DNA of 20,975 nucleotides from IMG/VR virus record IMGVR_UViG_2728369187_000006, positions 1 through 20,975 of that record; one strand, written 5' to 3'. The notes beneath the pieces are model-generated. The model had not been told where the DNA came from, did no database searches, and worked only from the letters and a program-made list of their open reading frames with translations. This document shows, one piece after another, positions 5,800-20,975 of the stretch (position 1 is the stretch's first letter; each line of letters begins with the position of its first letter). The translations under genes and the position numbers were made by a program. This DNA comes from a virus. Lineage: Duplodnaviria; Heunggongvirae; Uroviricota; Caudoviricetes.

Positions 5800-5844
5800 A
5801 AGCTGTGTGGCGAAGTAACCACTCTTAACAGATTACAATGTTTT

Positions 5845-5873
5845 TTGCGTACGCGTTAGCATTTTCGTAAAAT
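5845..5873 (+). promoter_or_regulatory. Candidate sigma70 promoter for the cargo operon
   Basis: TTGCGT (5845..5850), 17-nt spacer, TAAAAT (5868..5873), about 30 nt upstream of the 5905 ATG. AT-rich context, so chance matches are likely. Confidence 0.3.
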
Positions 5874-5904
5874 ACATTACCTTGCAACCATTTCAGTATA
5901 AAAA

Positions 5905-7695: not shown

Positions 7696-7698
7696 ATA

Positions 7699-8739
7699 AT
7701 GGCTAAAAAGATACACGTTTACGATTTCTTTTCCGGCTGCGGCGGAACCAGTGTAGGCCTAAAAGCGGTGGGAATGGAAATTATTTTCGGTTTAGATATT
7801 GATCTAGACTCCGCTAACACCTTTAAAATGAATAATCCATTTGCACATTTTATCAATGGTGATATCAAAGATACACACGTTGAGGAAATTAAGCATCTGG
7901 TTTGTGCGTCAACACAAAGCAAAGCTCTAACCCTATTTTGTGGTTGTGCTCCATGTCAACCATTCTCGAAACAAAATAAAATACGGAACGAGGATGATCC
8001 GAGAAAAGATCTGCTTACTGAGTTTGCACGGTTTGTCTCTTATTATACGCCAGACTTTGTACTGGTAGAGAATGTACCAGGAATCCAAAATGTCGATATT
8101 AACAATGGAAATTTCCAGAAATTTCTTGAGGTTTTAGCACATCATCACTACAACGTTGATTTTGGTGTGATTCCTGCGTTGTGGTTCGGGGTTCCTCAAA
8201 CACGTGAACGTTTTGTTTTACTGGCGTCAAAACACACGAATATTAAGCTTCCATCACAAACTCATGATGGATTAAAAACTCCGTATGCAACTGTCAGAGA
8301 CTGGATCGGCGGATTACCTCCTATTGCTGCCGGTGAAACTCATAAAGATGTTATGGATCATACAGCAGCCAAACTATCTGATCTAAATATTAAACGTATT
8401 AAAGCGACTCCTGAAGGAAAAGGTAGAGAATCTTGGCCTGAAGAACTTATACTAAAATGCCATAAAAAATATAAAGGGCATACTGATGTTTATGGACGGC
8501 TTTCTTGGGACAAACCAGCAAGTGGATTAACAACTAGATGTATAAGCTATTCGAATGGACGTTTCGGACATCCAGAGCAAGATAGGGCTATTTCTGTTAG
8601 AGAGGCTGCGTTATTACAGACTTTCCCATTAGACTATTCCTTCACAGGCTCTTTAGTCTCGAAAGCCAAACAGATAGGGAATGCAGTCCCTCCCAAGATG
8701 GCTGAAGCTCTTGGAAGGGCTATCATCGCATCACTTTAA
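7699..8739 (+). CDS. DNA (cytosine-5)-methyltransferase (cargo gene 2)
   Basis: 346 aa with canonical m5C motifs: I (FSGCGG), IV (PCQPFS), VI (ENVPG), VIII (QTRERF), X (GNAVPP). Starts 4 nt after the upstream stop, with GAGG inside the upstream gene end, so likely translationally coupled. Confidence 0.9.
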   Translation: MAKKIHVYDFFSGCGGTSVGLKAVGMEIIFGLDIDLDSANTFKMNNPFAHFINGDIKDTHVEEIKHLVCASTQSKALTLFCGCAPCQPFSKQNKIRNEDDPRKDLLTEFARFVSYYTPDFVLVENVPGIQNVDINNGNFQKFLEVLAHHHYNVDFGVIPALWFGVPQTRERFVLLASKHTNIKLPSQTHDGLKTPYATVRDWIGGLPPIAAGETHKDVMDHTAAKLSDLNIKRIKATPEGKGRESWPEELILKCHKKYKGHTDVYGRLSWDKPASGLTTRCISYSNGRFGHPEQDRAISVREAALLQTFPLDYSFTGSLVSKAKQIGNAVPPKMAEALGRAIIASL

Positions 8740-8749
8740 AAGCGGAGCC

Positions 8750-9106
8750 CTAGAGGGCTTCGCCTAACAATAATAGAATACCTGATATAAACCCTATAGC
8801 TCCCTGAAGCTCTTTTCTAATTGCTCCATCAGAGCATTTTCTTTTCTTAGCAATGGTGCGTAATGAGATACCAATCACAAAATGAGCAATGATCAGCTCA
8901 TATTCTTCTGGTTTATACTTCCGCAGGCGGGCGACACAGCCATCAATCATGATGCCTTCATCATCATCGCACTGAATCCGGGACTTTCTGCCATGAGGTA
9001 AAAGCCCCTTGAAGCCAGCGGCTACCGGTTGCCAATCCACACCACTGTTCTCTGCCGCAGCCCACGCTCCCCAACGGTCTAATACTTCATACATATCACA
9101 CATCAA
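8750..9106 (-). CDS. Late-gene antiterminator Q-like protein
   Basis: 118 aa with the VLDRWGAWAA...WQPVAAGFKGLL...RIQCDDDEG motif recalled from the prophage antiterminator-Q family. Sits at the expected position after the nin-like region. Confidence 0.7.
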   Translation of the reverse strand: MMCDMYEVLDRWGAWAAAENSGVDWQPVAAGFKGLLPHGRKSRIQCDDDEGIMIDGCVARLRKYKPEEYELIIAHFVIGISLRTIAKKRKCSDGAIRKELQGAIGFISGILLLLGEAL

Positions 9107-9120
9107 CTTTCTCCACCAAA

Positions 9121-10116
9121 TCAGGCTAGCACACCAATTGCCAACGCACGGTCGATAAAACGAAATATCAGCTCCAGCTGGGAGCCATACTTCTCTTCAA
9201 ATGCCACGGTATCCGCATGCAGCTCGTCGTGATGCTTTCTGCACAAAGGCAACACAAAGAGGTCATGCGCTTTTGTACCCATTCCACCCTGACCGTGGCC
9301 TATCAGGTGGTGGGGATCATCAGCAGGTTTTCCACAACATGCGCACGGCTGCGTCTTAACCCAGCGCGTGTACTTTTCATTAACCCAGCGGCGACGTTTT
9401 GGGCGTAACATAAAAGACTCCGGCGACTCCGGATCCACTTTCAGCGCCAGCACCTTTTTCGCCTTATCCTGGATGATGCTGGTGGCAGGAACCGAAGGCA
9501 CCAGGTCACTTTCCCGGGTGACAGATGGCACAACAGGCTTCGGTAATCTCAGTGCCTTACGGGCTGCACTTTCCGGTAAGGCATCCGCCAGATCATTACG
9601 AACCAGCCACCAGCACAGTTCCGGCATTGTCACAACGTGACTATCATCAAAACCGAGATCCCGACGCACAACAGACAACACCCAGCGGGCACAGTTATCC
9701 GTTGCCATTGATTCCAGCCGTTCCGTGAACTGATCGCGCAGCTGGTTATCACAGTGCCAGCACAGACGGATTGCGCCCGGAGCGTGTCGCATTGTGGTAA
9801 TGTTCTCGCTGTGCCAGTCGGAATGAGGCCACTGACAGCCCTTTTCACGAAGTAACCAGCTTTCAAGACATTCCACGCCACCAGCACGACGGATCACTGC
9901 CTCATTGCGGAACACGGCCCGAACGGCAGGATCATCCACCAGCGGTTGTGATGCCGCCGGAACTGCACCACTGGCGAAAGATGAATAACGTTCCGGCTCA
10001 GGCTCCAGCAGGACACGCCCCTGCATAAACAGGGGCATCAACTCTGAACCTGGCCTGAACAATACGATCCCCATACGCGGGGCAACTTCAGGGGTCAGTA
10101 GTGCTCTCACGGTCAC
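9121..10116 (-). CDS. DUF968-family protein (YdfU-like), C-terminal Cys/His-rich putative nuclease-like domain
   Basis: 331 aa with C-terminal CACCGK...HHLIGHGQGG...CRKHHDELH. Resembles DUF968 proteins of E. coli lambdoid prophages from memory. Confidence 0.7.
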   Translation of the reverse strand: MTVRALLTPEVAPRMGIVLFRPGSELMPLFMQGRVLLEPEPERYSSFASGAVPAASQPLVDDPAVRAVFRNEAVIRRAGGVECLESWLLREKGCQWPHSDWHSENITTMRHAPGAIRLCWHCDNQLRDQFTERLESMATDNCARWVLSVVRRDLGFDDSHVVTMPELCWWLVRNDLADALPESAARKALRLPKPVVPSVTRESDLVPSVPATSIIQDKAKKVLALKVDPESPESFMLRPKRRRWVNEKYTRWVKTQPCACCGKPADDPHHLIGHGQGGMGTKAHDLFVLPLCRKHHDELHADTVAFEEKYGSQLELIFRFIDRALAIGVLA

Positions 10117-10117
10117 C

Positions 10118-10927
10118 TCAATGAACGGTATCGAGCAGCTTTAACAGCTCAGGGAATCGGGATTCGAAGAAATGCGGCTGCGTCTCGCGCGGATTTGCGG
10201 GACTGGTGATATTCTTGCCGAACATGCAGCCTTTCGCTGTCAGCGACCAGAATTTTTTGATGTTGTTAATCGCGGTACGGCTGTATCGTTCGCGCTGCTC
10301 GACGATCCCCAGCTTCACCATCTGGTGATATGCCTGATTAGCTGTCAGGCGGATACCATACTGCTTCAGCAGTGCACTCAGTGACAGCGTGGGGCGGCTT
10401 GAGCCATCAGGCGCGTCAGCAGGAGCATCAATGGCATAGCGCGGTGCCAGATTCGGTAAGCCAACAGCCTCCTGGAGTTTCTGACAGGCACCAAGCACTG
10501 AAGAGTTAGACAGGTTTAATTCCCGGCGCATAAAGTCCAGCAGAATCACACCAGCCTGCATCTTGTCAGCAGCCTGTCCGGATAATTTTTCCGGTGCGCT
10601 GGTTACCATGTCGAAAGTACGGATCACCTTCAGATGGAATGACGGGCTGATCCACATTGCATAGGCATACACCAGTTCTTTGCAGACATACGTCCCCTGG
10701 TTATTTCCGCCATTAATGACGCTAACTTGTTGATTTTGTTCCAGAGGCGGAATTCCACCCTCGGTGAAAAGTTGTTCAATCAATTCACAGGTTTGCTTAT
10801 TGGAGAGCCAGTATTTCGGGCGGTTTTTTTGTTCTCCCCCGGCTGCCCTGTGCAGATCGTTCAGGCTGTAACGCCCATAAGCATCACGACGAACTTCAAT
10901 ACCATCAATGACCATCAGATTATTCAT
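10118..10927 (-). CDS. KilA-N domain protein (putative antirepressor-like)
   Basis: N-terminus (MNNLMVIDGIEVRRDAYGRYSLNDLHRAAGGEQKNRPKYWL) matches the KilA-N domain pattern; 269 aa. Confidence 0.75.
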   Translation of the reverse strand: MNNLMVIDGIEVRRDAYGRYSLNDLHRAAGGEQKNRPKYWLSNKQTCELIEQLFTEGGIPPLEQNQQVSVINGGNNQGTYVCKELVYAYAMWISPSFHLKVIRTFDMVTSAPEKLSGQAADKMQAGVILLDFMRRELNLSNSSVLGACQKLQEAVGLPNLAPRYAIDAPADAPDGSSRPTLSLSALLKQYGIRLTANQAYHQMVKLGIVEQRERYSRTAINNIKKFWSLTAKGCMFGKNITSPANPRETQPHFFESRFPELLKLLDTVH

Positions 10928-10946
10928 ACTTCGTTTCTCCTCTTAA

Positions 10947-11336
10947 TCAGGCGGCTGCACCCGCCGTTTTCTCGTACTTACTGATAGTGATCTCGACCTT
11001 CCCTCCCGGGATAACCGGTCCCCACTCCACCAGCATTCTTTTCACCTGACTGTCGTCTTCCCACACACCCGCGTGGGTCAGGGCGTCAAACAGCGCCTTG
11101 TTATAGTTGTCCAGATCGCGGATCCGGTTATCCGGAGGAAACAACACGATCTCCACTGAAGCAGGTGCCGACGTTGGTTTCGGCAGACGACGTAACTGCT
11201 CAACTATTGCTGCGCACGCCGCGCTCTGGAATTTTCGCCCCGCCGCGCTTATCAGACTCTTACCAGCAAACGCCCCTTTGTTGGGGTGTCGCCAGTACGT
11301 GTTCACGCTGGGCGGGAAAGGCAAGATCAGCTTCAT
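10947..11336 (-). CDS. rusA: Holliday junction resolvase RusA
   Basis: 129 aa, MKLILPFPPSVNTYWR...DLDNYNKALFDALTHAGVWEDDSQV is the RusA signature; typical nin-region gene. Confidence 0.88.
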   Translation of the reverse strand: MKLILPFPPSVNTYWRHPNKGAFAGKSLISAAGRKFQSAACAAIVEQLRRLPKPTSAPASVEIVLFPPDNRIRDLDNYNKALFDALTHAGVWEDDSQVKRMLVEWGPVIPGGKVEITISKYEKTAGAAA

Positions 11337-11659
11337 ACTTTCAGGCCTCTCTCATGTAACCAGTGGGCTGCACGCAGCCTGGCGTTTTCCTCACCGGCAA
11401 GCAGTGCGCGGATAATCCCGACCGCCTCGCTGTCGTCGTCCTTCACCGCGGTATGAAGCGTTATCCCCCGGGCCACGCCACGCTTTATCGTGATGACGCC
11501 TTTTTTCTCCAGTGCACGAAGATGCTCTACCGCTGCATTCACTGAACGGTATCCCAGCATGGTTGCCACCTCCTGATTGGTTGGCGGAAAGCCACGCTCT
11601 TTCTGGTAAGAAATCAGCATATCCAGCACCTGCTGCTGGCATTGAGTTAACGTCGTCAT
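11333..11659 (-). CDS. LexA DNA-binding-domain-like protein lacking the S24 peptidase domain
   Basis: Start taken at the internal ATG 11659..11657, which overlaps the upstream TGA as ATGA. LTQCQQQVLDMLISYQKERGFPPTNQEVATMLGYRSVNAAVEHLRALEKKGVI resembles the LexA N-terminal winged helix. Only about 108 aa, with no Ala-Gly/Ser/Lys protease module. Confidence 0.65.
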   Translation of the reverse strand: MTTLTQCQQQVLDMLISYQKERGFPPTNQEVATMLGYRSVNAAVEHLRALEKKGVITIKRGVARGITLHTAVKDDDSEAVGIIRALLAGEENARLRAAHWLHERGLKV

Positions 11660-12309
11660 GCCGCCATCTCCCTGACCAGTTTTTCCGCCTGCTGGCAAAC
11701 CTGCACCAGAAAGGCTTCACCACATGCCTCAAGTTCATCGCGCCCGATGTAGCTGATTGCCGGTCCCTTCCAGGTCTTGTCGAAAACAGCAATAGCACCA
11801 GCGAAGAAAGCGCCTGTCGGCACCTGCTTCTCATCCTTCGGGATAAACCAGGCAGGCAGTTCAAAACCAATACGCCCGCGAATAAAAGCAATATGGTCCG
11901 CATCTTCCGGCCACCACACTTCGCTGGTGGCAGCTTTGATCAGGAAAACATAGCGCCCGCCCTTATCACGCATGGCACTGGCATGTTTCATGATGTAACG
12001 CATGCCGGTGATGTATTGCCCCTCATGCTGACTGGCGCGGCTGTATGGGGGATTACCAAAGGCAGCACCTTTAAGCTCCGCAAGACGTTCTGACCAGTCA
12101 TGCGCCAGCGCGTTATCTTCCGCCGTGTAATACGCGGCACATTTGGCGTTATCACCGTCAGTAAACAGATCCAGAACAAACGGGCCAAACAGGGTGTTAA
12201 TTCCCCAGAAAATGTTGTCCGGCGTGCGCCACTGATCGCCCACTTCCTTCAGTTCATGGGCTGGTTTGTTCCGCAGTTCCACCAGCGCCTGGCAATATTT
12301 ATTACTCAT
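11656..12309 (-). CDS. Phage N6-adenine DNA methyltransferase (Dam-like)
   Basis: NPPY motif (AAFGNPPYSRA) and overall resemblance to phage Dam MTases. Start at ATG 12309..12307 overlaps the upstream stop (TAATG); the ORF-track start at 12342 is less likely. Confidence 0.8.
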   Translation of the reverse strand: MSNKYCQALVELRNKPAHELKEVGDQWRTPDNIFWGINTLFGPFVLDLFTDGDNAKCAAYYTAEDNALAHDWSERLAELKGAAFGNPPYSRASQHEGQYITGMRYIMKHASAMRDKGGRYVFLIKAATSEVWWPEDADHIAFIRGRIGFELPAWFIPKDEKQVPTGAFFAGAIAVFDKTWKGPAISYIGRDELEACGEAFLVQVCQQAEKLVREMAA

Positions 12310-12803
12310 TAAGCCCCCACGTAATTCCCTGACAGATACCACTCTTCACCCGATGCAGCGCGCTTGCTGCTTTTCCGTAAGCACCGCTCACGACGCGCCA
12401 GAAAATTGTTTCGTTCTGGCTGGGAGTGGCTTTCACGGAATGCCGCCATCCACACGGTTGCAGCACGACGGTATAAGCCCCTGGACTCCAGTTCTTCAGC
12501 CTGGCGGGTCAGGCACAAAATCACCCGGTGATCGTTAGTGCCGACATAGAAATTGCGCACAGGTCTGGTTTCACGAACTGGTTGTGGTTCCGGCTCCTGC
12601 GCTCTCTCAGTCAGGCGCGGGAAATGTCTGCGTGTATCCCCTTCACAACGGTGAGCCACACGCCCACTCTGACGTAACTTGCTTGCTGACTGCAGAACGC
12701 GCTGCCGTGAGTAACCTGCAAAAGCATCCGCAATGTCTCCGGAAGTACACCCCGGATGGGCTTCAATGAATTTCTGAACGTCATTTAACAGACTCATGAT
12801 CAC
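12309..12803 (-). CDS. Hypothetical regulator with PerC-like C-terminal motif
   Basis: 164 aa. C-terminal AEELESRGLYRRAATVWMAAF...RRERCLRK resembles PerC-family activators from memory. Occupies the slot where lambda has the helicase loader P. ATGA overlap with the upstream initiator gene. Confidence 0.5.
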   Translation of the reverse strand: MIMSLLNDVQKFIEAHPGCTSGDIADAFAGYSRQRVLQSASKLRQSGRVAHRCEGDTRRHFPRLTERAQEPEPQPVRETRPVRNFYVGTNDHRVILCLTRQAEELESRGLYRRAATVWMAAFRESHSQPERNNFLARRERCLRKSSKRAASGEEWYLSGNYVGA

Positions 12804-13741
12804 CCCCTGAATCCTGCCGGGATCTGGCTGTAGTCCACGTTGTCGTAACTGGATTTGAAGTACGGGTCTTCGCGTTTTTCGGTGTACGTGCTTACGGACG
12901 GCGATAAGCGCAGGGAAAGCTCATCCCATTTTTCCCGCAGCTTCGACGGGCTGAGCACGTTACGGCACCAGAACGGATCGCGGCTGACGCGGCTGTACAT
13001 CTCGCAGATTTGTTTGTGAGTACGACCATCCTGCACACACATCAGGCGAATTTCGTTTGCCCAGGCTGTCCAGTTCGGTTCTTTGGGACGAACCACCTCG
13101 CCGTCACATTCGGCAGCCTGCTCGTACAGGGCGATGATTTTTTTCCAGAGCCACTGTGCGCAGGTCAAATCATCCTGCGTTCCCCACTGGCGCTTTTTAG
13201 GGCTGAATACAACCGCATCAGGATGGCGAGTTAAAAAATCCTGTTCAGCCGTCTGCGTGTCCGGTTGCGAAGCGTCCGGACGAGAAGGTTTTTTATCTGA
13301 CGGATCATGTTTTGATTTTACTGACGGATCCCCGCCAGATTCTGACGGGTGAAAACCCGCTTTTTTGCCAGATTTCGACGCATCAAATTTTGACGGGTCA
13401 GATTTTGATGCGTCAGATTTTGACGGGTCAGAATCTGACAGTTGAGAAAATGCCGCTGCCTGAAGCTTCACAACGTTAAGCTGATAAACATTCGACGCAT
13501 TGCGGTTACCCTGGCGACGCGCCTTACGCGTTAACCAGCCTTCTGCTTCCAGCCGTGCGATAGCCGTTCTGACGGTACTCATCCCCGCGCCAATCTGACG
13601 GGCAATGGTTTCAATTGATGGCCAGCACACACCTTCGTCATTACTGAAATCAGCCAGGCGGGCCATAATTGCCACGCTGGATAATTTCATGCCTGACGCT
13701 GCGCAACCATCCCATACATAGCCGGTTAATTTAGTGCTCAT
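12800..13741 (-). CDS. Replication initiator protein (O-like; N-terminal HTH, internal iteron-encoded linker)
   Basis: 313 aa. N-terminal winged-helix-like segment (VAIMARLADFSNDEGVCWPSIETIARQIGAGMSTVRTAIARLEAEGWL). Central repetitive linker (DPSKSDASKSDPSKFDASKS) is encoded by the iteron repeats, as in lambda O. Confidence 0.75.
   Translation of the reverse strand: MSTKLTGYVWDGCAASGMKLSSVAIMARLADFSNDEGVCWPSIETIARQIGAGMSTVRTAIARLEAEGWLTRKARRQGNRNASNVYQLNVVKLQAAAFSQLSDSDPSKSDASKSDPSKFDASKSGKKAGFHPSESGGDPSVKSKHDPSDKKPSRPDASQPDTQTAEQDFLTRHPDAVVFSPKKRQWGTQDDLTCAQWLWKKIIALYEQAAECDGEVVRPKEPNWTAWANEIRLMCVQDGRTHKQICEMYSRVSRDPFWCRNVLSPSKLREKWDELSLRLSPSVSTYTEKREDPYFKSSYDNVDYSQIPAGFRG
13290..13440. repeat. 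Iteron-like direct repeats (candidate phage origin) inside the initiator gene
   Basis: About eight copies of a (T/A)YTGACGG-like unit at 14-24 bp spacing (for example tctgacgg at 13296, 13341; tttgacgg at 13389, 13419), read directly. Confidence 0.65.
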
Positions 13742-13750
13742 GACCGACCT

Positions 13751-14089
13751 CTATTTCCCTGAATTTACGACGAAACTGTTCGAGCGGACTGAAGCACTCA
13801 TGCTCATAGCCTTCGCGGAGGTAGATAACCCGTTGTGTTTCCGGTTCCCAACGAATGACTCTGACGGGCACTCCGTAGTGATCTTTGAACCAGCGGTTAA
13901 CTTGTCGCAAAGGACTGTCTCCTTCTGCCGGTTGAAATCACCCACAGCCCACTCTGCAAAGCTGTGGGTTACAATTTCCCTGTCACCTGGTACATTTACT
14001 GCATAGCAATACTCCACCTTCGCTTTTCCACCCGGTACAGGAAGCGCAATCAGTTGCGAGCGACGGTAGTGTGTTGTTAAACTGTTCAT
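13751..14089 (-). CDS. Hypothetical protein, apparently frame-disrupted, or two small overlapping genes
   Basis: The 112-aa ORF is protein-like for its first ~55 aa, then turns Ser-rich and low-complexity. Another frame over 13746..13931 reads as a convincing protein ([59 protein letters not shown]), with AAGGAG 8 nt before an in-frame TTG. An 8-bp hairpin (13941..13968) sits at the junction. Confidence 0.35.
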
Positions 14090-14649
14090 GCGTTAGTTTC
14101 TCCACAGTCACGACACGCCACGGCGCCCGGAGCTGCACACTCGCGGGCGTCATTACTTTCTGAAATGCAAAAGATTTTGTAGACCAGTGCTGCATGCTCC
14201 TGCAGCTTCGAAATTGAGAGATATAGCTCGTCGTTAATTGCTGTTTTCTCATGCGGTTCCACTACACCGTCTTCGATTGCTGAACGAATCTGTTTTGAAT
14301 AACTGCCGATCTGTTCAATGACTTCCAGCAGACGCTGGTTAATATCGGCGTTGTCCACATCCTCGACGTCAGGAAGAGACACAAATACGCCATTTGCAGA
14401 CTGCGCCACAGCATCAGCAATGAAGTGAGTGCCACCAGCACGCTGTAAAACCATTGCCCATCCCAGCGGAAAAATCTGATCGCCATCTGCACGAAGGCGG
14501 TTGAATAAAGCGTTCTCTGTTACATCCAGCCAGTCAGCCGCTTCAGCGTAACCACCCGGCAACGCCGCGATAGTTTTTCTGACAGCTTTCACGTACCACT
14601 CAGGCTGTTTTTCTATTTTCCAGTGATGCTTACCCACGATTAGCCTCAT
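14086..14649 (-). CDS. CII-like / YdaT-like phage regulatory protein
   Basis: 187-aa ORF directly downstream of the cro-like gene, as in cI-cro-cII and racR-ydaS-ydaT arrangements. Family assignment is from memory and position only. Confidence 0.6.
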
Positions 14650-14680
14650 CGTTCTGTGGTTAAAAATTGAAAGTGTTCTG

Positions 14681-14881
14681 CTAATCTTTCGGATAGATAT
14701 CCGGTCTTAAGTCAGATTTCGTAATTGCACCTGACGTGCATTGCTCAAGTTTTTTAGCCAGCACAAAACTGGCTTTTTTATAGCCATTGAAAACCAGCCG
14801 TAAGTAGCCAGGTGTTGAGCCAACTTTTCCGGCCAACTCGCCCTGCTGTTCTTTGGTTAAAGAGTCCCAATACGCTTTCAT
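14681..14881 (-). CDS. cro: Cro-like HTH repressor
   Basis: Small HTH protein (QGELAGKVGSTPGYLRLVFNGYKKAS) divergent from cI. Start at ATG 14881 is preferred because GGAGG lies 8 nt upstream; the ORF-track start at 14905 lacks an RBS. Confidence 0.75.
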   Translation of the reverse strand: MKAYWDSLTKEQQGELAGKVGSTPGYLRLVFNGYKKASFVLAKKLEQCTSGAITKSDLRPDIYPKD

Positions 14882-14971
14882 ACAATATGTACCTCCGGTG
14901 TACATATTACATGATTAAAATGAACCTTCAAGATACTTGTACCTTAACGGTACAAGGGTTTTAATTTCGTT
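14882..14971. promoter_or_regulatory. Immunity control region (OR-like): two palindromic operators plus divergent pR-like and pRM-like promoters
   Basis: Palindromes ATGTACCTCCGGTGTACAT (14887..14905) and CTTGTACCTTAACGGTACAAG (14936..14956). Minus-strand TTGAAG-N16-TAATAT upstream of cro; plus-strand TTGTAC-N17-TTAATT ending 5 nt before the cI ATG (near-leaderless). Confidence 0.65.
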
Positions 14972-15646
14972 ATGAAAACAATCCATGACATCCGGCGGTC
15001 TAACGCCAGAAAACTGAGAGATGGTGTTGGCGGGAATTCTTCCTTTGCCACTATGATTGATCGCGAGCCAACCCAGACCAGCAGGTTTATGGGAGATGGT
15101 GCTACTAAAAATATCGGTGACAGCATGGCACGACACATCGAAAAATGTTTCGACCTGCCTGTCGGATGGCTCGATCAAGAACACCAGACAACCAACATCA
15201 CAAAAAAACCTGATGTTTCAATCACTAATAAACAAATCACATTAGTCCCTGTCATATCATGGGTACAGGCCGGAGCATGGAAAGAAGTTGGATATTCTGA
15301 GGTTGATTTGAGCACAGCAGAAACGTATCCCTGCCCTGTACCCTGTGGGGAAATGACTTATATCTTGCGGGTGATAGGTGATTCAATGATTGATGAGTAC
15401 CGCCCGGGAGACATGATTTTTGTCGATCCTGAAGTACCTGCCTGCCACGGTGACGACGTTATTGCATTGATGCACGATACAGGTGAAACCACCTTCAAAA
15501 GGTTGATAGAAGATGGGACACAGCGTTATCTCAAAGCGTTAAACCCAAACTGGCCTGAGCCTTACATTAAGATCAACGGTAATTGCTCTATAATTGGAAC
15601 TGTGATTTTCTCAGGAAAACCAAGAAGATACAAAATCAAAGCCTAA
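14972..15646 (+). CDS. cI: cI-like repressor (N-terminal DNA-binding domain plus C-terminal S24 LexA-like autopeptidase)
   Basis: 224 aa. C-terminal S24 features: Ala-Gly cleavage-site candidate (WVQAGAWK), Ser nucleophile context (VIGDSM), downstream Lys. Divergent from the cro-like gene across the operator region. Confidence 0.85.
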   Translation: MKTIHDIRRSNARKLRDGVGGNSSFATMIDREPTQTSRFMGDGATKNIGDSMARHIEKCFDLPVGWLDQEHQTTNITKKPDVSITNKQITLVPVISWVQAGAWKEVGYSEVDLSTAETYPCPVPCGEMTYILRVIGDSMIDEYRPGDMIFVDPEVPACHGDDVIALMHDTGETTFKRLIEDGTQRYLKALNPNWPEPYIKINGNCSIIGTVIFSGKPRRYKIKA

Positions 15647-15658
15647 TCAATGTTTATG

Positions 15659-15682
15659 AACCTGCTTCGGCAGGTTTTTTTA
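15659..15682 (+). terminator. Rho-independent terminator after cI
   Basis: ACCTGC-TTCG-GCAGGT stem followed by a run of 6-7 T. Confidence 0.75.
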
Positions 15683-15685
15683 TAC

Positions 15686-15720
15686 TTGACAATGTACCCT
15701 TGAGATACATAATGTACCTA
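15686..15720 (+). promoter_or_regulatory. pL-like early-left promoter with overlapping operator repeats (OL-like)
   Basis: TTGACA (15686..15691), 16-17 nt spacer, CATAAT/ATAATG (15708..15714). AATGTACC repeats at 15691..15698 and 15711..15718 share the TGTACC half-site seen in the OR region. Confidence 0.65.
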
Positions 15721-15817
15721 AGAGAAACAACAAACAGGCAGGACGCCCACGAAGTAGCCGCCGGTGGCGTATGAATGACCGGATGATTCGTTAAATACTA
15801 TGTGTAAGAGAGCGCAA

Positions 15818-16021
15818 ATGAACCGTTATTTCACATGCTCGTTTTGTGGCGCAAACGAGCTGCAGGCAAAAAAAATCATCGCCAAAGGCGGAAAAGATGA
15901 AGTTGCTATCTGCTCTGAGTGCGTAGTCTTGTGTGTCGGGGCATTAATCAATATCAGCACAACTATTCAGTTCACACCAAATGAGAATGCGCCTTTAGAT
16001 GCGCGGAAATCTGGAGGTTAA
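15818..16021 (+). CDS. Small protein with ClpX-type C4 zinc-binding-domain-like motif
   Basis: MNRYFTCSFCGANELQAKKIIAKGGKDEVAICSECVVLCVGAL aligns by eye with the E. coli ClpX N-terminal ZBD ([31 protein letters not shown]), including all four Cys. AAGAGAG RBS upstream of ATG 15818. First gene downstream of the pL-like promoter. Confidence 0.65.
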   Translation: MNRYFTCSFCGANELQAKKIIAKGGKDEVAICSECVVLCVGALINISTTIQFTPNENAPLDARKSGG

Positions 16022-16029
16022 AGAACAAA

Positions 16030-16305
16030 ATGAAAGTCCAGATTTTAAACAATAGTGGTGAAGTCGTTTGGTCATACGACATAGCCGCTCCTGTAGATCA
16101 GAGCGGCGATAGCTGGACCAATGGGAAACATCAGATTATGGCTGGAGTTGTGTTCTCTTTACGCCGTGCTTTAGAACAGGCTGAAGTCTTTCCATCAGAC
16201 CCTGAATGGAAATGGCCTTTTTCTATTTGTCCAAATTCGGAGAGTACATTTCAGAAAATTGGTCAGAAAGTCGCACTCGAAGAGCATCAGCCAACTGTTT
16301 CCTGA
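16030..16305 (+). CDS. Hypothetical protein (early-left operon)
   Basis: 91-aa ORF with a strong GGAGG RBS 8 nt before the ATG. Its 3' end overlaps a convergent minus-strand ORF, so the true C-terminus is uncertain. Confidence 0.55.
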   Translation: MKVQILNNSGEVVWSYDIAAPVDQSGDSWTNGKHQIMAGVVFSLRRALEQAEVFPSDPEWKWPFSICPNSESTFQKIGQKVALEEHQPTVS

Positions 16306-16468
16306 TTTTTTCAGGTAACTCGTCGGCATCGCAGAAACAACAACGCTCGATCATGTTGAAAGCCGATTCGTAGAACTGTTTTTGCTGAGTGTCGCTGAGA
16401 CAGGAAAAGAGCGACGTTACGATGATTTTATTAATTGCATTATCAAGTTCTTTTTCATCAAAAGTCAT
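16223..16468 (-). CDS. Hypothetical small protein, convergent and overlapping the previous gene
   Basis: 81-aa ORF with AAGGAAAA RBS upstream of its ATG and a protein-like sequence including a CCFC motif. Conflicts over 83 nt with 16030..16305; one of the two may be mis-called. Confidence 0.4.
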   Translation of the reverse strand: MTFDEKELDNAINKIIVTSLFSCLSDTQQKQFYESAFNMIERCCFCDADELPEKIRKQLADALRVRLSDQFSEMYSPNLDK

Positions 16469-16724
16469 TTGATTTTCCTTTTATGTATACGGGCTTAAAA
16501 GGATACCACCGAGCCTGAAGTGGTGAAAAGACAGGCACATAACAGCTAAGTATTTTCAACCAGAGAGAATCCTTAGCGTTGTGGTGAATGCGGCTCAGCG
16601 CACGCGGGTTAAGGTTGAGGCTGACAGTCGACCTTCTGTGGATACCCACCCGCCTGGTGTGCAACCTTCGCCAGGCACCGGGAGGCACCCGGCACCACAA
16701 CTTTATGCTGTGTGTAGTCTTGGC

Positions 16725-16770
16725 GGTACCAGCTTGTACCCTTGCTTCCGGCTGGTACCGTCCTTTTTAC
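16725..16770 (+). terminator. Candidate intrinsic terminator / structured element in early-left non-coding region
   Basis: 9-bp stem GGTACCAGC / GCTGGTACC (16725..16733 and 16751..16759) with a 17-nt loop, followed by GTCCTTTTTAC. The loop and stem carry CTTGTACC and GGTACC, the same half-site as the operators. Confidence 0.4.
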
Positions 16771-16981
16771 AAAACAGAGAAGAGCATCACCGGACGACGG
16801 GCTCATAACCCAATCCATCCGGGCGGCTGCCACCGCAGGTGTTCTTCTCTGTTTTGTGGAGAAACTAACCGCCCCTACGGGGGCATTTATGGAAATGTAA
16901 TTGACTCAATAATCGCCGGACGGTGAGGGCTTCCTTTTACCCGAATTCAACGCGGTGCAGTGCATATACGTGGAGAACAAA

Positions 16982-17518
16982 ATGTCATTTATTAAAACTT
17001 TTTCCGGGAAGCATTTTTATTATGACAAGATAAATAAAGACGACATCGATATTAACGATATCGCGGTTTCCCTTTCAAATATCTGTCGCTTTGCCGGTCA
17101 TCTTTCGCACTTCTACAGCGTCGCCCAACATGCGGTTCTTTGCAGCCAGCTGGTGCCGCAGGAATTTGCTTTTGAAGCGTTAATGCATGATGCAACAGAA
17201 GCGTATTGCCAGGACATTCCCGCACCACTGAAACGCCTTCTTCCTGACTATAAACGGATGGAAGAAAAAATAGACGCCGTAATCCGTGAGAAATACGAGT
17301 TACCCCCAGTTATGAGTACACCCGTGAAATATGCCGATCTCATCATGCTGGCAACCGAACGCCGCGATCTCGGGCTTGATGATGGCTCTTTCTGGCCTGT
17401 ACTGGAAGGCATCCCGGCAACAGAGATGTTCAACGTGATTCCACTGGCACCGGGTCATGCCTACGGGATGTTTATGGAACGTTTTAACGATTTATCGGAG
17501 TTACGCAAATGCGCATGA
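16982..17518 (+). CDS. HD-domain phosphohydrolase
   Basis: H...HD metal-binding pattern (SVAQHAVL ... ALMHDATEAY). Start at ATG 16982 is preferred (GGAGA RBS) over the ORF-track start at 16955. Confidence 0.75.
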   Translation: MSFIKTFSGKHFYYDKINKDDIDINDIAVSLSNICRFAGHLSHFYSVAQHAVLCSQLVPQEFAFEALMHDATEAYCQDIPAPLKRLLPDYKRMEEKIDAVIREKYELPPVMSTPVKYADLIMLATERRDLGLDDGSFWPVLEGIPATEMFNVIPLAPGHAYGMFMERFNDLSELRKCA

Positions 17519-17871
17519 ATGTTTTCGAAATGGAAGGGTTTCTTCGCGGGAAATGTGTACCGCGAGATCTGAAAGTGAACGAAACAAATGCTGAGTACCT
17601 GGTACGTAAATTCGACGCGCTTGAAGCTAAATGTGCGGCACTGGAAAACAAAATAATACCAGTGTCAGCTGAACTGCCACCAGCAAATGAAAGTGTTCTG
17701 TTATTTGATGCTAATGGAGAAGGCTGGCTGATTGGCTGGCGTTCTCTCTGGTACACCTGGGGACAAAAAGAAACCGGAGAATGGCAGTGGATATTTCAGG
17801 TCGGGGACCTTGAAAACGTCAATATCACTCACTGGGCAGTAATGCCAAAAGCACCGGAGGCTGGAGCATAA
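17509..17871 (+). CDS. DUF551-like phage protein
   Basis: Trp-rich C-terminus ending ITHWAVMPKAPE resembles the DUF551 THWMPLP signature from memory. Overlaps the HD gene end by 10 nt. Confidence 0.65.
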   Translation: MRMNVFEMEGFLRGKCVPRDLKVNETNAEYLVRKFDALEAKCAALENKIIPVSAELPPANESVLLFDANGEGWLIGWRSLWYTWGQKETGEWQWIFQVGDLENVNITHWAVMPKAPEAGA

Positions 17872-18176
17872 TGACCACATTTACCAATAAAGAACTGATT
17901 AAAGAAATCAAAGAACGAATCAGCAGCCTAGAGGTTCGAGACGATATTGAGCGCCGTGCTTATGAAATCGCACTCGTATCTCTGGAAGTAGAGCCAGATG
18001 AACGCGAAGCCTATGAATTATTCATGGAAAAGCGTTTCGGTGACTTAGTAGATCGTCGGAGAGCAAAAAACGGCGATAACGAATACATGGCATGGGATAT
18101 GACTCTCGGTTGGATCGTCTGGCAGCAACGAGCTGGTATCCATTTTTCAACAATGACACAGCAAGAGGTGAAATAA
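17871..18176 (+). CDS. Hypothetical protein (exo-xis-region-like accessory gene)
   Basis: 101-aa ORF with a charged, protein-like sequence in the int-proximal accessory region. No family recognised. Confidence 0.55.
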   Translation: MTTFTNKELIKEIKERISSLEVRDDIERRAYEIALVSLEVEPDEREAYELFMEKRFGDLVDRRRAKNGDNEYMAWDMTLGWIVWQQRAGIHFSTMTQQEVK

Positions 18177-18274
18177 TGGAGCCATACAGCCTCACACTCG
18201 ATGAGGCCTGTTCATTGCTCAATGATATCCAGACCTACCATCGCCGCATCAATGCGGCTTTTTCTTGCGTGTAA
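18176..18274 (+). CDS. Very small hypothetical ORF (32 aa)
   Basis: AGAGGTG RBS 6 nt upstream; ATG overlaps the upstream stop (TAATG). Too short for a confident call. Confidence 0.3.
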   Translation: MEPYSLTLDEACSLLNDIQTYHRRINAAFSCV

Positions 18275-18290
18275 TTGCGGAGACTTTGCG

Positions 18291-18509
18291 ATGTACTTGA
18301 CACTTCAGGAGTGGAACGCTCGCCAGCGACGCCCAAGAAGCCTTGAAACAGTTCGTCGATGGGTGCGCGAATGCAGGATATTCCCTCCTCCGGTTAAGGA
18401 TGGAAGAGAGTATCTGTTCCACGAATCAGCGGTAAAGGTTGACTTAAATCGACCAGTAACAGGTAGCCTTTTGAAGAGGATCAGAAATGGGAAGAAGGCG
18501 AAGTCATGA
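18291..18509 (+). CDS. xis: Excisionase Xis (lambda-type)
   Basis: 72 aa from the internal ATG 18291 (MYLTLQEWNARQRRPRSLETVRRWVRECRIFPPPVKDGREYLFHESAVKVDLNRPVTGSLLKRIRNGKKAKS), matching lambda Xis from memory. Overlaps the int start as in lambda. Confidence 0.92.
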   Translation: MYLTLQEWNARQRRPRSLETVRRWVRECRIFPPPVKDGREYLFHESAVKVDLNRPVTGSLLKRIRNGKKAKS

Positions 18510-19557
18510 GCGCCGGGATTTACCCCCTAACCTTTATATAAGAAACAATGGATATTACTGCTACAGGGACCCAAGGACGGGTAAAGAGTTCGGATTAGGC
18601 AGAGACAGGAGGATAGCAATTACTGAAGCAATACAGGCAAACATTGAGTTATTTTCAGGACACAAACACAAGCCTCTGACAGCGAGAATCAACAGTGATA
18701 ATTCTGTTACGTTACATTCATGGCTTGATCGCTACGAAAAAATCCTCGCCAGCAGAGGAATCAAGCAGAAGACACTTATAAATTACATGAGCAAAATTAA
18801 AGCAATAAGGAGGGGGCTACCTGATGTTCCACTTGAAGACATCACCACAAAAGAAATTGCAGCAATGCTCAATGGATACATAGACGAGGGCAAGGCGGCG
18901 TCAGCCAAGTTAATCAGATCAACACTGAGCGATGCATTCCGAGAGGCAATAGCTGAAGGCCATATAACAACAAACCCGGTCGCTGCCACTCGCGCAGCAA
19001 AATCAGAGGTAAGGAGATCAAGACTTACGGCTGACGAATACCTGAAAATTTATCAAGCAGCAGAATCATCACCATGTTGGCTTAGACTTGCAATGGAACT
19101 GGCTGTTGTTACCGGGCAGCGAGTTGGTGATTTATGCGAAATGAAGTGGTCTGATATCGTAGATGGATATCTTTATGTCGAGCAAAGCAAAACAGGCGTA
19201 AAAATTGCCATCCCAACAGCATTGCATGTTGATGCTCTCGGAATATCAATGAAGGAAACACTTGATAAATGCAAAGAGATTCTTGGCGGAGAAACCATAA
19301 TTGCATCTACTCGTCGCGAACCGCTTTCATCCGGCACAGTATCAAGGTATTTTATGCGCGCACGAAAAGCATCAGGTCTTTCCTTCGAAGGGGATCCGCC
19401 TACCTTTCACGAGTTGCGCAGTTTGTCTGCAAGACTCTATGAGAAGCAGATAAGCGATAAGTTTGCTCAACATCTTCTCGGGCATAAGTCGGACACCATG
19501 GCATCACAGTATCGTGATGACAGAGGCAGGGAGTGGGACAAAATTGAAATCAAATAA
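18487..19557 (+). CDS. int: Site-specific tyrosine integrase Int (lambda-type)
   Basis: 356 aa, essentially lambda Int from memory (MGRRRSHERRDLPPNLYIRNNGYYCYRDPRTGKEFGLGRDRRIAITEAIQANIELF...), followed directly by the att site. Confidence 0.95.
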   Translation: MGRRRSHERRDLPPNLYIRNNGYYCYRDPRTGKEFGLGRDRRIAITEAIQANIELFSGHKHKPLTARINSDNSVTLHSWLDRYEKILASRGIKQKTLINYMSKIKAIRRGLPDVPLEDITTKEIAAMLNGYIDEGKAASAKLIRSTLSDAFREAIAEGHITTNPVAATRAAKSEVRRSRLTADEYLKIYQAAESSPCWLRLAMELAVVTGQRVGDLCEMKWSDIVDGYLYVEQSKTGVKIAIPTALHVDALGISMKETLDKCKEILGGETIIASTRREPLSSGTVSRYFMRARKASGLSFEGDPPTFHELRSLSARLYEKQISDKFAQHLLGHKSDTMASQYRDDRGREWDKIEIK

Positions 19558-19660
19558 TGATTTTATTTTGACTGATAGTGACCTGTTCGTTGCAACAAAT
19601 TGATAAGCAATGCTTTTTTATAATGCCAACTTAGTATAAAAAAGCAGGCTTCAACGGATT
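19558..19660 (-). other. attL (BOP'): lambda core GCTTTTTTATACTAA flanked by phage P' arm and bacterial B arm
   Basis: Minus strand reads TGAAGCCTGCTTTTTTATACTAAGTTGGCATTATAAAAAAGCATTGCTTATCAATTTGTTGCAACGAACAGGTCACTATCAGTCAAAATAAAATCATT. The core is at 19631..19645, and the B half matches lambda attB (TGAAGCCTGCTTTTTTATACTAA). Confidence 0.9.
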
Positions 19661-19691
19661 CATTTTTCTATTTCATAGCCCGGAGCAACCT

Positions 19692-20975
19692 GTGAACACA
19701 TTTTCAGTTTCCCGTCTGGCGCTGGCATTGGCTTTTGGCGTGACGCTGACCGCCTGTAGCTCAACACCGCCCGATCAACGTCCTTCTGATCAAACCGCGC
19801 CTGGTACCTCTTCTCGCCCGATTCTGTCGGCAAAAGAAGCGCAGAATTTCGATGCTCAACACTATTTTGCATCCCTGACACCAGGTGCGGCAGCGTGGAA
19901 TCCTTCCCCGATTACCCTGCCTGCGCAACCTGACTTTGTTGTCGGCCCGGCGGGTACTCAAGGTGTAACGCATACCACGATTCAGGCGGCGGTAGATGCG
20001 GCAATTATCAAGCGCACCAACAAGCGCCAGTATATTGCCGTGATGCCTGGTGAGTATCAGGGAACGGTATATGTCCCTGCCGCTCCGGGTGGAATTACTC
20101 TGTACGGTACAGGTGAAAAACCGATTGATGTGAAGATTGGGCTTTCCCTTGATGGGGGCATGAGCCCTGCCGACTGGCGTCATGACGTCAACCCGCGCGG
20201 CAAATATATGCCAGGTAAACCAGCGTGGTATATGTACGATAGCTGCCAGAGCAAACGCAGCGACAGTATCGGCGTTCTCTGCTCTGCGGTCTTCTGGTCA
20301 CAAAACAATGGCCTGCAACTGCAAAACCTGACCATCGAAAACACGCTGGGCGATAGCGTAGATGCAGGTAACCATCCGGCGGTGGCACTGCGTACTGATG
20401 GCGACAAAGTGCAGATCAATAACGTCAACATTCTCGGTCGTCAAAATACCTTCTTTGTCACCAACAGTGGTGTGCAAAACCGTCTGGAAACCAACCGTCA
20501 GCCGCGTACTCTGGTGACCAACAGTTACATTGAAGGGGATGTGGATATCGTTTCTGGTCGCGGCGCAGTGGTGTTCGATAACACCGAATTCCGCGTGGTG
20601 AACTCACGTACTCAGCAAGAAGCGTATGTGTTTGCACCGGCTACGCTGTCTAACATCTATTACGGTTTCCTCGCCGTAAACAGCCGTTTCAATGCTTCCG
20701 GTGATGGCGTGGCGCAACTGGGTCGCTCGCTGGATGTTGATGCCAATACCAACGGTCAGGTGGTGATCCGTGATAGCGCCATCAACGAAGGTTTTAACAC
20801 GGCGAAACCGTGGGCCGATGCGGTGATTTCCAATCGTCCATTCGCAGGTAACACCGGCAGCGTTGACGATAGCGACGAAATACAACGCAATCTGAATGAC
20901 ACTAACTACAACCGCATGTGGGAATACAATAACCGCGGCGTGGGTAGTAAAGTGGTTGCAGAGGCGAAGAAGTAA
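19692..20975 (+). CDS. ybhC: Host YbhC, pectinesterase-family outer-membrane lipoprotein (acyl-CoA thioesterase)
   Basis: 427 aa with GTG start, signal peptide and lipobox (LTAC). Recognised from memory as E. coli YbhC, the gene next to attB-lambda. Complete in window, stop at 20973..20975. Confidence 0.88.
   Translation: MNTFSVSRLALALAFGVTLTACSSTPPDQRPSDQTAPGTSSRPILSAKEAQNFDAQHYFASLTPGAAAWNPSPITLPAQPDFVVGPAGTQGVTHTTIQAAVDAAIIKRTNKRQYIAVMPGEYQGTVYVPAAPGGITLYGTGEKPIDVKIGLSLDGGMSPADWRHDVNPRGKYMPGKPAWYMYDSCQSKRSDSIGVLCSAVFWSQNNGLQLQNLTIENTLGDSVDAGNHPAVALRTDGDKVQINNVNILGRQNTFFVTNSGVQNRLETNRQPRTLVTNSYIEGDVDIVSGRGAVVFDNTEFRVVNSRTQQEAYVFAPATLSNIYYGFLAVNSRFNASGDGVAQLGRSLDVDANTNGQVVIRDSAINEGFNTAKPWADAVISNRPFAGNTGSVDDSDEIQRNLNDTNYNRMWEYNNRGVGSKVVAEAKK

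Follow-up and report, generated by a model that had tools for sequence, protein, structure and literature searches.

Heteroimmune phages that carry the integration module of lambda have long been known, 434 and HK97 among them, and SfV-like prophages have been reported at several sites. HK97, a siphovirus, differs in its immunity, replication, Q and packaging alleles from the sequence considered here, a 20,975-nucleotide stretch of IMG/VR record IMGVR_UViG_2728369187_000006 (hereafter, the window). In the SfV-like lambdoid myoviruses SfV, SfIV, SfII and vB_EcoM-720R4, by comparison, gene order is shared with the window, and nucleotide identity to it is 95-97% in the packaging, lysis, nin-like, replication and immunity regions. 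The site used by lambda is recognised as a hotspot of prophage insertion (PMC3603311). The lambda prophage at gal-bio has its attL at the same ybhB/ybhC site, with int at the ybhC (gal-side) junction in the same orientation as in the window. Literature searches on ybhC, prophage and attB gave only general reports or reports on other phages, for example a P22-like phage integrating upstream of ybhC, and a search on vB_EcoM-720R4 gave unrelated papers only.

The right-hand part of the window is very probably an attL (BOP') together with a lambda/HK97-type integration and excision cassette, carried on an SfV-like prophage at the lambda site. This agrees with the initial annotation in so far as it described a mosaic prophage with a lambda-type integration module: the cassette is of lambda/HK97 type, on a body 95-97% identical in nucleotides to SfV and 720R4. 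The donors that it proposed for several of the modules fared less well.

An attL at the lambda attachment site

The attachment region and host flank comprise the following features.

19558-19630: P' arm, between the int stop and the core
19554-19584, minus strand: whole set of Int arm-type sites, exact lambda matches AAATCATTAT, CAGTCAAAAT and AGGTCACTAT
19554-19563, minus strand: P'3
19565-19574, minus strand: P'2
19575-19584, minus strand: P'1
19593-19605, minus strand: predicted H' IHF-binding site TATCAATTTGTTG, an exact match in a region identical to lambda
19631-19645, minus strand: 15-bp common core GCTTTTTTATACTAA, the attL (BOP') crossover point
19634-19640: 7-bp overlap TTTATAC within the core
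19646-20975, plus strand: bacterial flank, comprising the B arm, the remaining ybhB-ybhC intergenic region and ybhC
19692-20975, plus strand: ybhC

The locus reads as attL (BOP') at attB-lambda because the phage cassette, with xis, int, the P' arm and the 15-bp core at 18291-19645, joins the bacterial B arm and ybhC at 19646. The core occurs once in the window against zero copies expected from shuffles. Homology to lambda and HK97 ends exactly at 19645, which corresponds to lambda position 27724, the first base of the annotated core; at this point phage homology stops and K-12 homology starts, inside the ybhB-ybhC intergenic attB. From the core on, the host flank runs colinear with the unoccupied site of K-12 MG1655 (97.0% nucleotide identity over 1330 nt), and ybhC is annotated by RefSeq in matching genomes. 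The insertion point, in the lambda attachment site, precedes ybhC by 46 nt, and the colinearity of core, B arm and ybhC with K-12 confirms the proposed placement of the prophage at attB-lambda beside ybhC. Lambda (NC_001416, 27724-29126) has an identical 15-bp core, P'1-3 and H', names which, for the arm-type sites P'1, P'2 and P'3, we take from established knowledge of lambda attP. The 88-nt att part between int and the end of the core (19558-19645) had 0 mismatches to lambda and 0 to HK97.

The xis-int cassette

Two overlapping genes precede the attachment region.

18291-18509, plus strand: xis, excisionase, 72 aa (Pfam Exc, PF07825, 3.9e-41)
18487-19557, plus strand: int, lambda-type tyrosine integrase, 356 aa (Arm-DNA-bind_1 and Phage_integrase)

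The xis stop overlaps the int start (18487-18509). Int consists of an N-terminal arm-DNA-binding domain followed by core-binding and catalytic domains (Arm-DNA-bind_1, 7.1e-33; Phage_int_M/SAM_1; Phage_integrase, 2.9e-40), its catalytic residues R212, K235, H308, R311, H333 and Y342 are all intact, as in lambda, and it carries the lambda rather than the HK022 core-specificity residues (N99, S282, G283, R287 and E319). Amino acid identity of Int was 99.2% to lambda (three residue changes: A114V, H164P and I248V), 99.7% to HK97 (one residue) and 74.6% to HK022, and Xis was 100% identical to HK97 and HK022 and 98.6% to lambda, with G59S as the sole difference.

From the xis start to the core end (1355 nt), the window had 25 mismatches to lambda (98.15% identity), these lying within xis-int, and 12 to HK97 (99.1%). 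The matching HK97 segment (NC_002167, 21230-22686) starts 100 nt ahead of xis, 54 nt farther upstream than the homology to lambda, and runs for 1457 nt to the core end at 99.2% identity; it includes an identical Xis, core, P' arm and upstream terminator-like hairpin. Outside the cassette, HK97 matched the window in nucleotides only in the endolysin (82.8%) and over 105 nt at 75%. The cassette is, by alignment, a lambda/HK97-type module that groups with the HK97 allele rather than with that of lambda, because it has fewer mismatches to the former. HK022 was rejected as the cassette donor given its more distant Int and a nucleotide homology that ends at 19584, before the core. The initial annotation had read Int, Xis, the P' arm and the core as lambda itself, which holds for the att part (100% identical) and not for xis-int, which is nearer HK97. 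It would have given up this reading had the int-attL segment proved not to be lambda-like, and at 98.15% identity to lambda the segment is lambda-type.

The prophage body

Gene assignments in the remainder of the prophage were based on Pfam and PHROG.

1-18188, minus strand unless marked: prophage body, resembling the SfV, vB_EcoM-720R4 and e14-like lambdoid phages
1-753, minus strand: portal N-terminus
753-935, minus strand: ymfR-like
947-2680, minus strand: terL
2677-3180, minus strand: terS (P27 type)
3297-3647, minus strand: HNH
4443-4835, minus strand: Rz
4819-5295, minus strand: endolysin
5299-5625, minus strand: holin
8750-9106, minus strand: Q
9121-10116, minus strand: DUF968
10118-10927, minus strand: KilA-N
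10947-11336, minus strand: RusA
11656-12342, minus strand: Dam
12309-12803, minus strand: PerC/YfdN
12800-13741, minus strand: O-like initiator
14086-14649, minus strand: CP76-type CII-like
14681-14881, minus strand: cro
14972-15646, plus strand: cI
16955-17518, plus strand: yfdR
17509-17871, plus strand: 120-aa ORF
17871-18176, plus strand: yfdT

Lambdoid gene order with SfV-type alleles was found over most of 1-18238. Nucleotide identity to 720R4 was 97.0% over 1-3650 and 95.7% over 9131-14150, and that to SfV was 96.5% over 1008-3238, 97.0% over 9131-12875 and 96.0% over 16871-18238. The comparisons indicate that the body is that of an SfV / vB_EcoM-720R4 / e14-like lambdoid phage and not of an HK97 relative. 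SfV itself differs in that its integrase is unrelated and its excisionase is different (no significant match to those of the window), its Q gene and Q-holin interval are not those found here, where Q is a short Q-family antiterminator, and its portal is only 25.8% identical in amino acids to the 720R4/e14-type portal of the window. All phage genes in the window are intact ORFs with lengths as in the viable phages SfV and 720R4. yfdP-yfdQ, present in 13 of the 13 relatives compared, is absent here through a 1.28-kb deletion.

By its alleles, the immunity region is that of SfV: cI and Cro are 99.6% and 100% identical to their SfV counterparts in amino acids, and the operator-like palindromes between cI and cro are like those of SfV and unlike lambda OR. 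A relation to lambda is retained within cI, which keeps an intact S24 autocleavage domain (Pfam); this C-terminal domain is ~35% identical to that of lambda cI, so that, of the proposal that repressor and operators are unrelated to lambda, the part on the operators stands and the part on the repressor needs qualifying. The same proposal for the replication genes was too strong: over 216 aa, the initiator (313 aa) shares 30.6% of its residues with lambda O (E 1.8e-26), of which it is a distant homologue.

The endolysin, described in the initial annotation as lambda's own, is 85% (nucleotide) and 86.7% (amino acid) identical to lambda R; the endolysin of HK97 shares 88% and SfV R 93.7% of its amino acids. 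It is best classed as an SfV-type allele within the lambda R family, and lambda was rejected as its donor. The neighbouring holin and Rz are likewise SfV-type and 24-35% identical to those of lambda.

The packaging genes are 96-97% identical in nucleotides to those of SfV and vB_EcoM-720R4 and fall into the Pfam families HNH, Terminase_4 (P27-type small terminase), TerL and Phage_portal. TerL and the portal are recognisable homologues of the HK97 proteins (25.5% identity, E 1.7e-29, and 30.7%, E 2.4e-29, respectively), TerS gave no significant hit to HK97 and the packaging genes had no nucleotide match to that phage. The description of this module as HK97-like is thus accurate at the family level, at which the architecture is shared, and not at the level of sequence, and HK97-like phages (Hendrixvirinae) were set aside as its source. 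That the module is not lambda's was correct: no homologues of Nu1, A, W or B were found by tblastn, and late-gene control (Q) is likewise not that of lambda.

Among 22 lambda proteins besides Int and Xis, tblastn matches were obtained for O (30.6%), the cI C-terminal domain (35%) and R (86.7%) only; N, cII, cIII, cro, P and Q, as well as the four packaging genes named above, had no homologues in the window by this search. At the nucleotide level, lambda matched the window at 18243-19645, in the endolysin (395 nt at 85%) and in one 35-nt stretch only. With immunity, antitermination, replication, terminase and head genes that differ, the prophage is not phage lambda itself (Lambdavirus lambda).

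The junction upstream of xis and a putative pI motif

Three features lie between yfdT and xis.

18176-18274, plus strand: 32-codon ORF spanning the junction between the SfV-like body and the cassette
18243-18268, plus strand: terminator-like hairpin GCCGCA-TCAA-TGCGGC with TTTTTCTT after it, shortly before xis (terminator scan)
18265-18278, plus strand: TTGC-N6-TTGC repeat, the sole copy in the window, identical in sequence to lambda and HK97

In the alignments, homology switches between the SfV-like body and the HK97/lambda-type cassette at ~18189-18219. SfV and the prophage of strain C4 match the window up to ~18219, HK97 matches it from 18189 and lambda from ~18243, leaving ~31 nt (18189-18219) that are common to all three backbones (SfV-type, torI-type and HK97). 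A 32-aa gene has been called at the place matching the junction ORF in the related prophage L017. The hairpin proper occupies 18243-18258, and the HK97 record has a putative terminator annotated at the homologous position (22612-22631).

The TTGC-N6-TTGC repeat, which we take to be the motif recognised by CII at the lambda promoter pI, seems to have come in with the cassette. No lambda-type CII is encoded in the window, in which a CP76-type CII-like protein (187 aa) is the only one present. Because the pI motif of the cassette fits lambda CII, yet no lambda-type CII is encoded, there is a slim chance that Int synthesis during lysogenisation by this widespread lineage uses a different, undescribed route. 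Transcripts of the early-left operon might read through the hairpin at 18243-18258 and so express int or, alternatively, pI might be cross-recognised by the unrelated CP76-type CII-like protein. If true, this would be a natural example of regulatory rewiring following a module swap.

Related prophages and their frequency

The int-attL-ybhC junction was present in 1919 of 5426 complete E. coli genomes (~35%), and an identical yfdT-xis junction in 39 of them, whereas none of 50,697 phage records spanned the latter. A megablast search with the whole window found no place covered to at least 80% in the same 5426 genomes (best, 79% covered at 96.9% identity). The exact Int sequence (V114 allele) was listed in 4300 blocks of the assembly collection, and all 10 of the 10 places shown were SfV-like early regions adjoining ybhC.

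Two prophages between ybhB and ybhC, in SCU-482 and L017, are 99.4% identical to the window over 16871-20975, and the yfdT-xis junction of SCU-482 is 100% identical. Across SCU-482, GF60 and many other strains, prophages at this site have the same xis-int-attL and SfV-like backbone and differ in their lysis, Q, immunity or moron modules. The GF60 prophage runs, in order, ybhB, attR, gtr genes, Mu-like tail, head, early genes, xis, int, attL and ybhC. In its attR, the core lies at L005 6583-6597, the B' arm matches K-12 without a difference, and the P arm is of lambda type, sib region included (87% identical to lambda and 91% to HK97). An attR had been predicted next to ybhB and downstream of the tail genes; in GF60 it does lie beside ybhB, but gtrA, gtrB and glucosyltransferase genes sit between it and the tail genes.

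Strain C4 has a body 98.8-99.4% identical to that of the window (99.4% over 1-10717) and a torI-type excisionase at the same junction. In this strain, a tail sheath gene adjoins the head genes. GF60 and C4, whose packaging genes are 96.7-99.4% identical to those of the window, encode a tail sheath, a tail tube, a Mu-like baseplate and an HK97-family prohead protease. The Mu-like contractile tail is known from these relatives, the tail region lying outside the window.

Proposed mechanism and alternative explanations

Because the cassette is near-identical to that of lambda, its mode of action can be proposed by analogy. During integration, Int would bind the core-type sites as well as its arm-type sites, which are P'1-3 in this attL and P1 and P2 on the opposite arm; with IHF at H', it would exchange strands between attP and attB within the 7-bp overlap. 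Recombination of attL with attR, which excises the prophage, would depend on Xis and, at the P arm of attR, on Fis and IHF. At the far end of an SfV-like prophage integrated in this way, we would expect ybhB, the B' arm TTTTTACCTTCCCGTTTCGCTCAAGT, the core TTAGTATAAAAAAGC and a lambda/HK97-type P arm. The cassette was probably joined to the SfV-like body by recombination in the short shared sequence just upstream of xis; recombination in sequence shared between backbones would make the integration module exchangeable.

A different parentage, in which lambda's own int, xis and att and its own R endolysin were joined to HK97-related packaging genes, draws on the high identity of Int, Xis and the att part to lambda (99.2%, 98.6% and 100%), on an endolysin of the lambda R family (86.7% aa) and on HNH, TerL and portal proteins with detectable HK97 homologues (TerL, E 1.7e-29; portal, E 2.4e-29). 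Against it, the cassette is nearer HK97 (12 versus 25 mismatches, with homology starting 54 nt farther upstream), the endolysin is closest to SfV (93.7% aa, against 85% nucleotide identity to lambda) between an SfV-type holin and Rz, and the packaging genes, without a nucleotide match to HK97, are 96-97% identical to SfV and 720R4. We regard this parentage as highly improbable, and for the endolysin and packaging module the alignments already contradict it. A defective, locked-in remnant, with intact int, xis and attL and yet no excision or particles, is unlikely: every phage gene in the window is intact, at the lengths seen in SfV and 720R4, as are the Int catalytic residues, all att sub-sites and the S24 autocleavage domain of cI. 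What could be read as decay is the 1.28-kb yfdP-yfdQ deletion relative to all relatives compared, the frameshifts and IS elements in related prophages at the site (e.g., SCU-482), the absence of this mosaic from isolated phages (no phage record spans yfdT-xis) and the fact that only half of the element is visible, attR and the tail half lying outside the window.

The remaining alternative concerns origin only and is compatible with the function proposed above, namely that the hybrid arose in place, through recombination between an incoming SfV-like phage and a lambda/HK97-type prophage, or the remnant of one, resident at attB-lambda; the cassette would then come from the site and not with the phage. 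The shared sequence at 18189-18219, common to SfV-type, torI-type and HK97 backbones, would allow this, related prophages at the site differ module by module, and a lambda-type int at the site in 35% of genomes means that resident recombination partners are on offer. Against this, GF60 has a lambda-type far arm as well, adjoining SfV-like gtr genes, and the V114 Int allele travels with SfV-like early regions in 10 of 10 places sampled; both observations are consistent with a free phage lineage bearing the cassette. Origin in place is conceivable, if somewhat doubtful.

Significance

The arrangement is ordinary, common and already known, and its importance beyond strain bookkeeping is small. 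Site competition and heteroimmunity, the significance suggested for it in the initial annotation, are valid points, but they are textbook biology; 35% of complete E. coli genomes have a lambda-type int at the site. For the prophage itself, we infer recombination activity, inducibility and heteroimmunity to lambda; the SfV-type repressor should not confer lambda immunity. With attB-lambda occupied, lambda or CRIM-type attP vectors would presumably need the hybrid attL/attR or secondary sites, and the resident Int and Xis could act on such vector inserts upon induction. For superinfection, the candidate defence genes that the prophage carries at 5905-8739 may outweigh the occupancy of the site.

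Gene content of the window

The ORF map and homology searches, with genes assigned from Pfam and PHROG, showed that the window is prophage for about 19.6 kb and host DNA thereafter.

Gene map of the window (coordinates, strand, feature)
1-753, -, portal, N-terminal 251 codons (left end of the window)
right after portal, -, small ymfR-like gene
947-2680, -, terL
2677-3180, -, terS, P27-type
3297-3647, -, HNH gene
4443-5625, -, Rz, endolysin (4819-5295) and holin
8750-9106, -, Q antiterminator, short
between Q and the initiator, -, in this order: DUF968, KilA-N, RusA, LexA-like repressor, Dam, PerC/YfdN
12800-13741, -, HTH replication initiator
14086-14649, -, CP76-type CII-like gene (187 aa, PF06892)
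beyond the CII-like gene, -, cro
14972-15646, +, cI
between cI and xis, +, small early-left genes, then yfdR and yfdT
18243-18258, terminator-like hairpin (terminator scan), with a T-run after it, downstream of the segment shared among backbones
18265-18278, pI TTGC-N6-TTGC motif (lambda CII-recognition repeat), after the hairpin
18291-18509, +, xis
18487-19557, +, int
between int and ybhC, core on -, intergenic att region
19692-20975, +, ybhC (host), GTG start

An SfV-like prophage body

The sequence places the prophage body in the SfV-like lambdoid group. Kinship of this group with the cryptic K-12 prophages e14 and KplE1 is indicated by RefSeq gene names of the ymf and yfd series. SfV-like elements have been described as lambdoid phages with myovirus tails that occupy five different E. 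coli integration sites, and the lambda site as a heavily used intergenic hotspot (PMC3603311). Related prophages of E. coli GF60 and C4, with packaging genes matching those in the window at 96.7-99.4% identity, continue with an HK97-family head and then tail sheath, tail tube, and Mu-like baseplate genes. The packaging genes had been called HK97-like in the initial annotation, which holds for their architecture (HNH, Terminase_4, TerL, and Phage_portal in Pfam) and for detectable homology (TerL 25.5% aa, E = 1.7e-29, and portal 30.7% aa identical to HK97); however, they have no nucleotide similarity to those of HK97, and the alleles match SfV and Escherichia phage vB_EcoM-720R4 at 96-97% nt identity.

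The endolysin, previously read as that of lambda, proved closer to SfV R (93.7% aa identity) than to lambda R (85.3% nt, 86.7% aa), with 88.0% aa identity to the HK97 endolysin. Holin and Rz are 94.6% and 85.3% identical to those of SfV versus only 24-35% to those of lambda. Replication genes described as unrelated to lambda include an initiator that is a distant homologue of lambda O (30.6% over 216 aa, E = 1.8e-26). The same description of the repressor and operators was right in part: the cI-cro intergenic palindromes resemble the putative SfV operators and not lambda OR, and cI and Cro are 99.6% and 100% aa identical to SfV, but cI does share its S24 domain, and that alone, with lambda cI (~35%). 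Immunity, as read from these alleles, is that of SfV.

Relative to SfV, vB_EcoM-720R4, and all 13 related prophages compared, yfdP and yfdQ (DUF2303; ~1.28 kb) are absent at 16868-16882, with the breakpoint flanked by a pair of similar GC-rich hairpin-like sequences.

The xis-int-attL cassette

The initially flagged interval, 18291-19660, opens precisely on the ATG of xis and extends 15 nt beyond the att core. Among 50,697 phage records (megablast), the best match to 18150-19700 was HK97 (99.2% over 1,457 nt), followed by 434 (98.4%) and lambda (98.1%). Int, Xis, the P' arm, and core had been taken for lambda itself; this stands for the att part, since no mismatch to lambda or HK97 occurs in the 88 nt between the int stop and the core end, but xis-int is nearer HK97, with an ungapped comparison over 1,355 nt (xis start through core end) giving 12 mismatches to HK97 versus 25 to lambda. 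Int has the substitutions A114V, H164P, and I248V relative to lambda Int, and only A114V separates it from HK97 Int; catalytic residues R212, K235, H308, R311, H333, and Y342 are unchanged, as are N99, S282, G283, R287, and E319, which separate lambda from HK022 core specificity. Xis is identical to HK97 and HK022 Xis and carries G59S relative to lambda Xis, whereas HK022 Int is just 74.6% identical and HK022 DNA homology ends at 19584, short of the core. A tblastn search of the window with 22 other lambda proteins gave matches for O, R, and the C-terminal domain of cI only.

The window has a single copy of the 15-bp core, GCTTTTTTATACTAA, located at 19631-19645 (minus strand; 0 expected in shuffles), and the P'1, P'2, and P'3 arm-type sites (19554-19584) and H' IHF site (19593-19605) match lambda exactly. 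Lambda/HK97 homology stops at 19645, equivalent to position 27724 in lambda, where the annotated core begins, and from 19646 onward the window runs colinearly with the unoccupied ybhB-ybhC site of K-12 and with ybhC (97.0% over 1,330 nt); the structure is therefore attL (BOP'), confirming the proposed insertion at attB-lambda beside ybhC. As in a lambda lysogen, int lies beside the ybhC (gal-side) junction. Since only 46 nt separate the crossover core from the GTG of ybhC downstream of it, the prophage substitutes for the native upstream sequence of ybhC. int and ybhC are co-oriented with 134 nt between them (19558-19692), and ybhC could receive read-through transcription leaving int.

The lambda integration/excision pathway is the most likely function, given how nearly the cassette matches this best-studied of site-specific recombination systems. 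Int and IHF would recombine attP and attB across the 7-bp overlap, excision would proceed between attL and attR with dependence on Xis and Fis, and induction would probably follow RecA-stimulated autocleavage of the S24-domain repressor. From the observed identities and site anatomy, we infer a recombination-active, inducible prophage that would be heteroimmune to lambda. The pI CII motif arrived with the cassette; the window encodes no lambda-type CII, and its CII-like protein belongs to an unrelated family, CP76.

Exchange of the integration module

Alignment of the window with SfV, C4, GF60, HK97, and lambda revealed SfV-type sequence up to ~18219, HK97-type from 18189, and lambda-type from ~18243, such that ~31 nt (18189-18219) are common to the SfV-type, torI-type (C4), and HK97 backbones. 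This segment lies at the start of a 32-codon ORF (18176-18274) that overlaps the yfdT stop and spans the junction. The first ~45 nt of the ORF are conserved across backbones with three integration modules (SfV int, torI-type, and HK97/lambda-type), which suggests a linker sequence used in cassette exchange. HK97 has a putative terminator annotated at the position of the hairpin. The C4 body is 99.4% identical over 1-10717 and 97.5% over 10842-14661, and past the junction it carries a torI-type excisionase (L008 26215-26415) in place of the lambda-type cassette. This is direct evidence for cassette-wise exchange of the integration module at the junction. The C4 body carrying that excisionase is 98.8-99.4% identical to the window; the fetched stretch downstream of the excisionase lies beside upaE, an adhesin gene, and has no annotated integrase, possibly marking a decayed end.

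Distribution and the other prophage end

A 400-nt probe covering the int 3' end, attL, and ybhC start matched at ≥80% coverage in 1,919 of 5,426 complete E. coli genomes, the others matching from the core onward only. The exact Int protein was indexed in 4,300 blocks of the assembly collection, and all 10 places listed were SfV-like early regions beside ybhC. The yfdT-xis junction occurred in 39 genomes (100% identical in SCU-482) and was spanned by none of the 50,697 phage records. SCU-482 and another related prophage (L017) are 99.4% identical to 16871-20975, and no complete E. coli genome matched the window at ≥80% coverage. Lambda-type xis-int is also found in vB_EcoP-720R6, named as a podovirus, and integration upstream of ybhC has been shown for a P22-like phage (bioRxiv 10.64898/2026.05.19.726188). 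By these sequence comparisons, the xis-int-attL feature itself occurs essentially unchanged in many sequenced genomes; the prophage is a new combination of known modules in a very common lineage, a real but ordinary observation.

The other prophage end lies outside the window. In a relative, the GF60 prophage located between ybhB and ybhC, the attR predicted beside ybhB is present, with gtr genes interposed. Its core (L005 6583-6597) adjoins a B' arm identical to K-12 and a P arm (87% to lambda over 274 nt, 91% to HK97 over 215 nt) that includes sib and the sites P1 and P2, beyond which lie SfV-like gtrA, gtrB, and glucosyltransferase genes and then the tail module.

Variable islands

Between the HNH gene and Rz, the segment 3650-4440 (~41% GC) is variable, with other genes in relatives; a 94-aa ORF there (3898-4182, +) had no Pfam-independent PHROG or PADLOC match. 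Between Q and holin, and oriented against the genes on either side, is a low-GC island (5905-8739, + strand; 33-39% GC versus ~50-55% around it). Its products are a 596-aa AAA_15/AAA_21 ATPase (PADLOC HEC-04, 1.9e-36; ATPase-Toprim_I-B, 1.1e-24), labelled 'ATP-dependent nuclease' in RefSeq, and a 346-aa C5 cytosine DNA methyltransferase. The pair is a candidate OLD-like nuclease/methylase defence or restriction-modification-like moron. It was also present in prophages of E. coli A21, DLI.6n, and C4, and GF60 has a KwaB-like Kiwa gene at this position.
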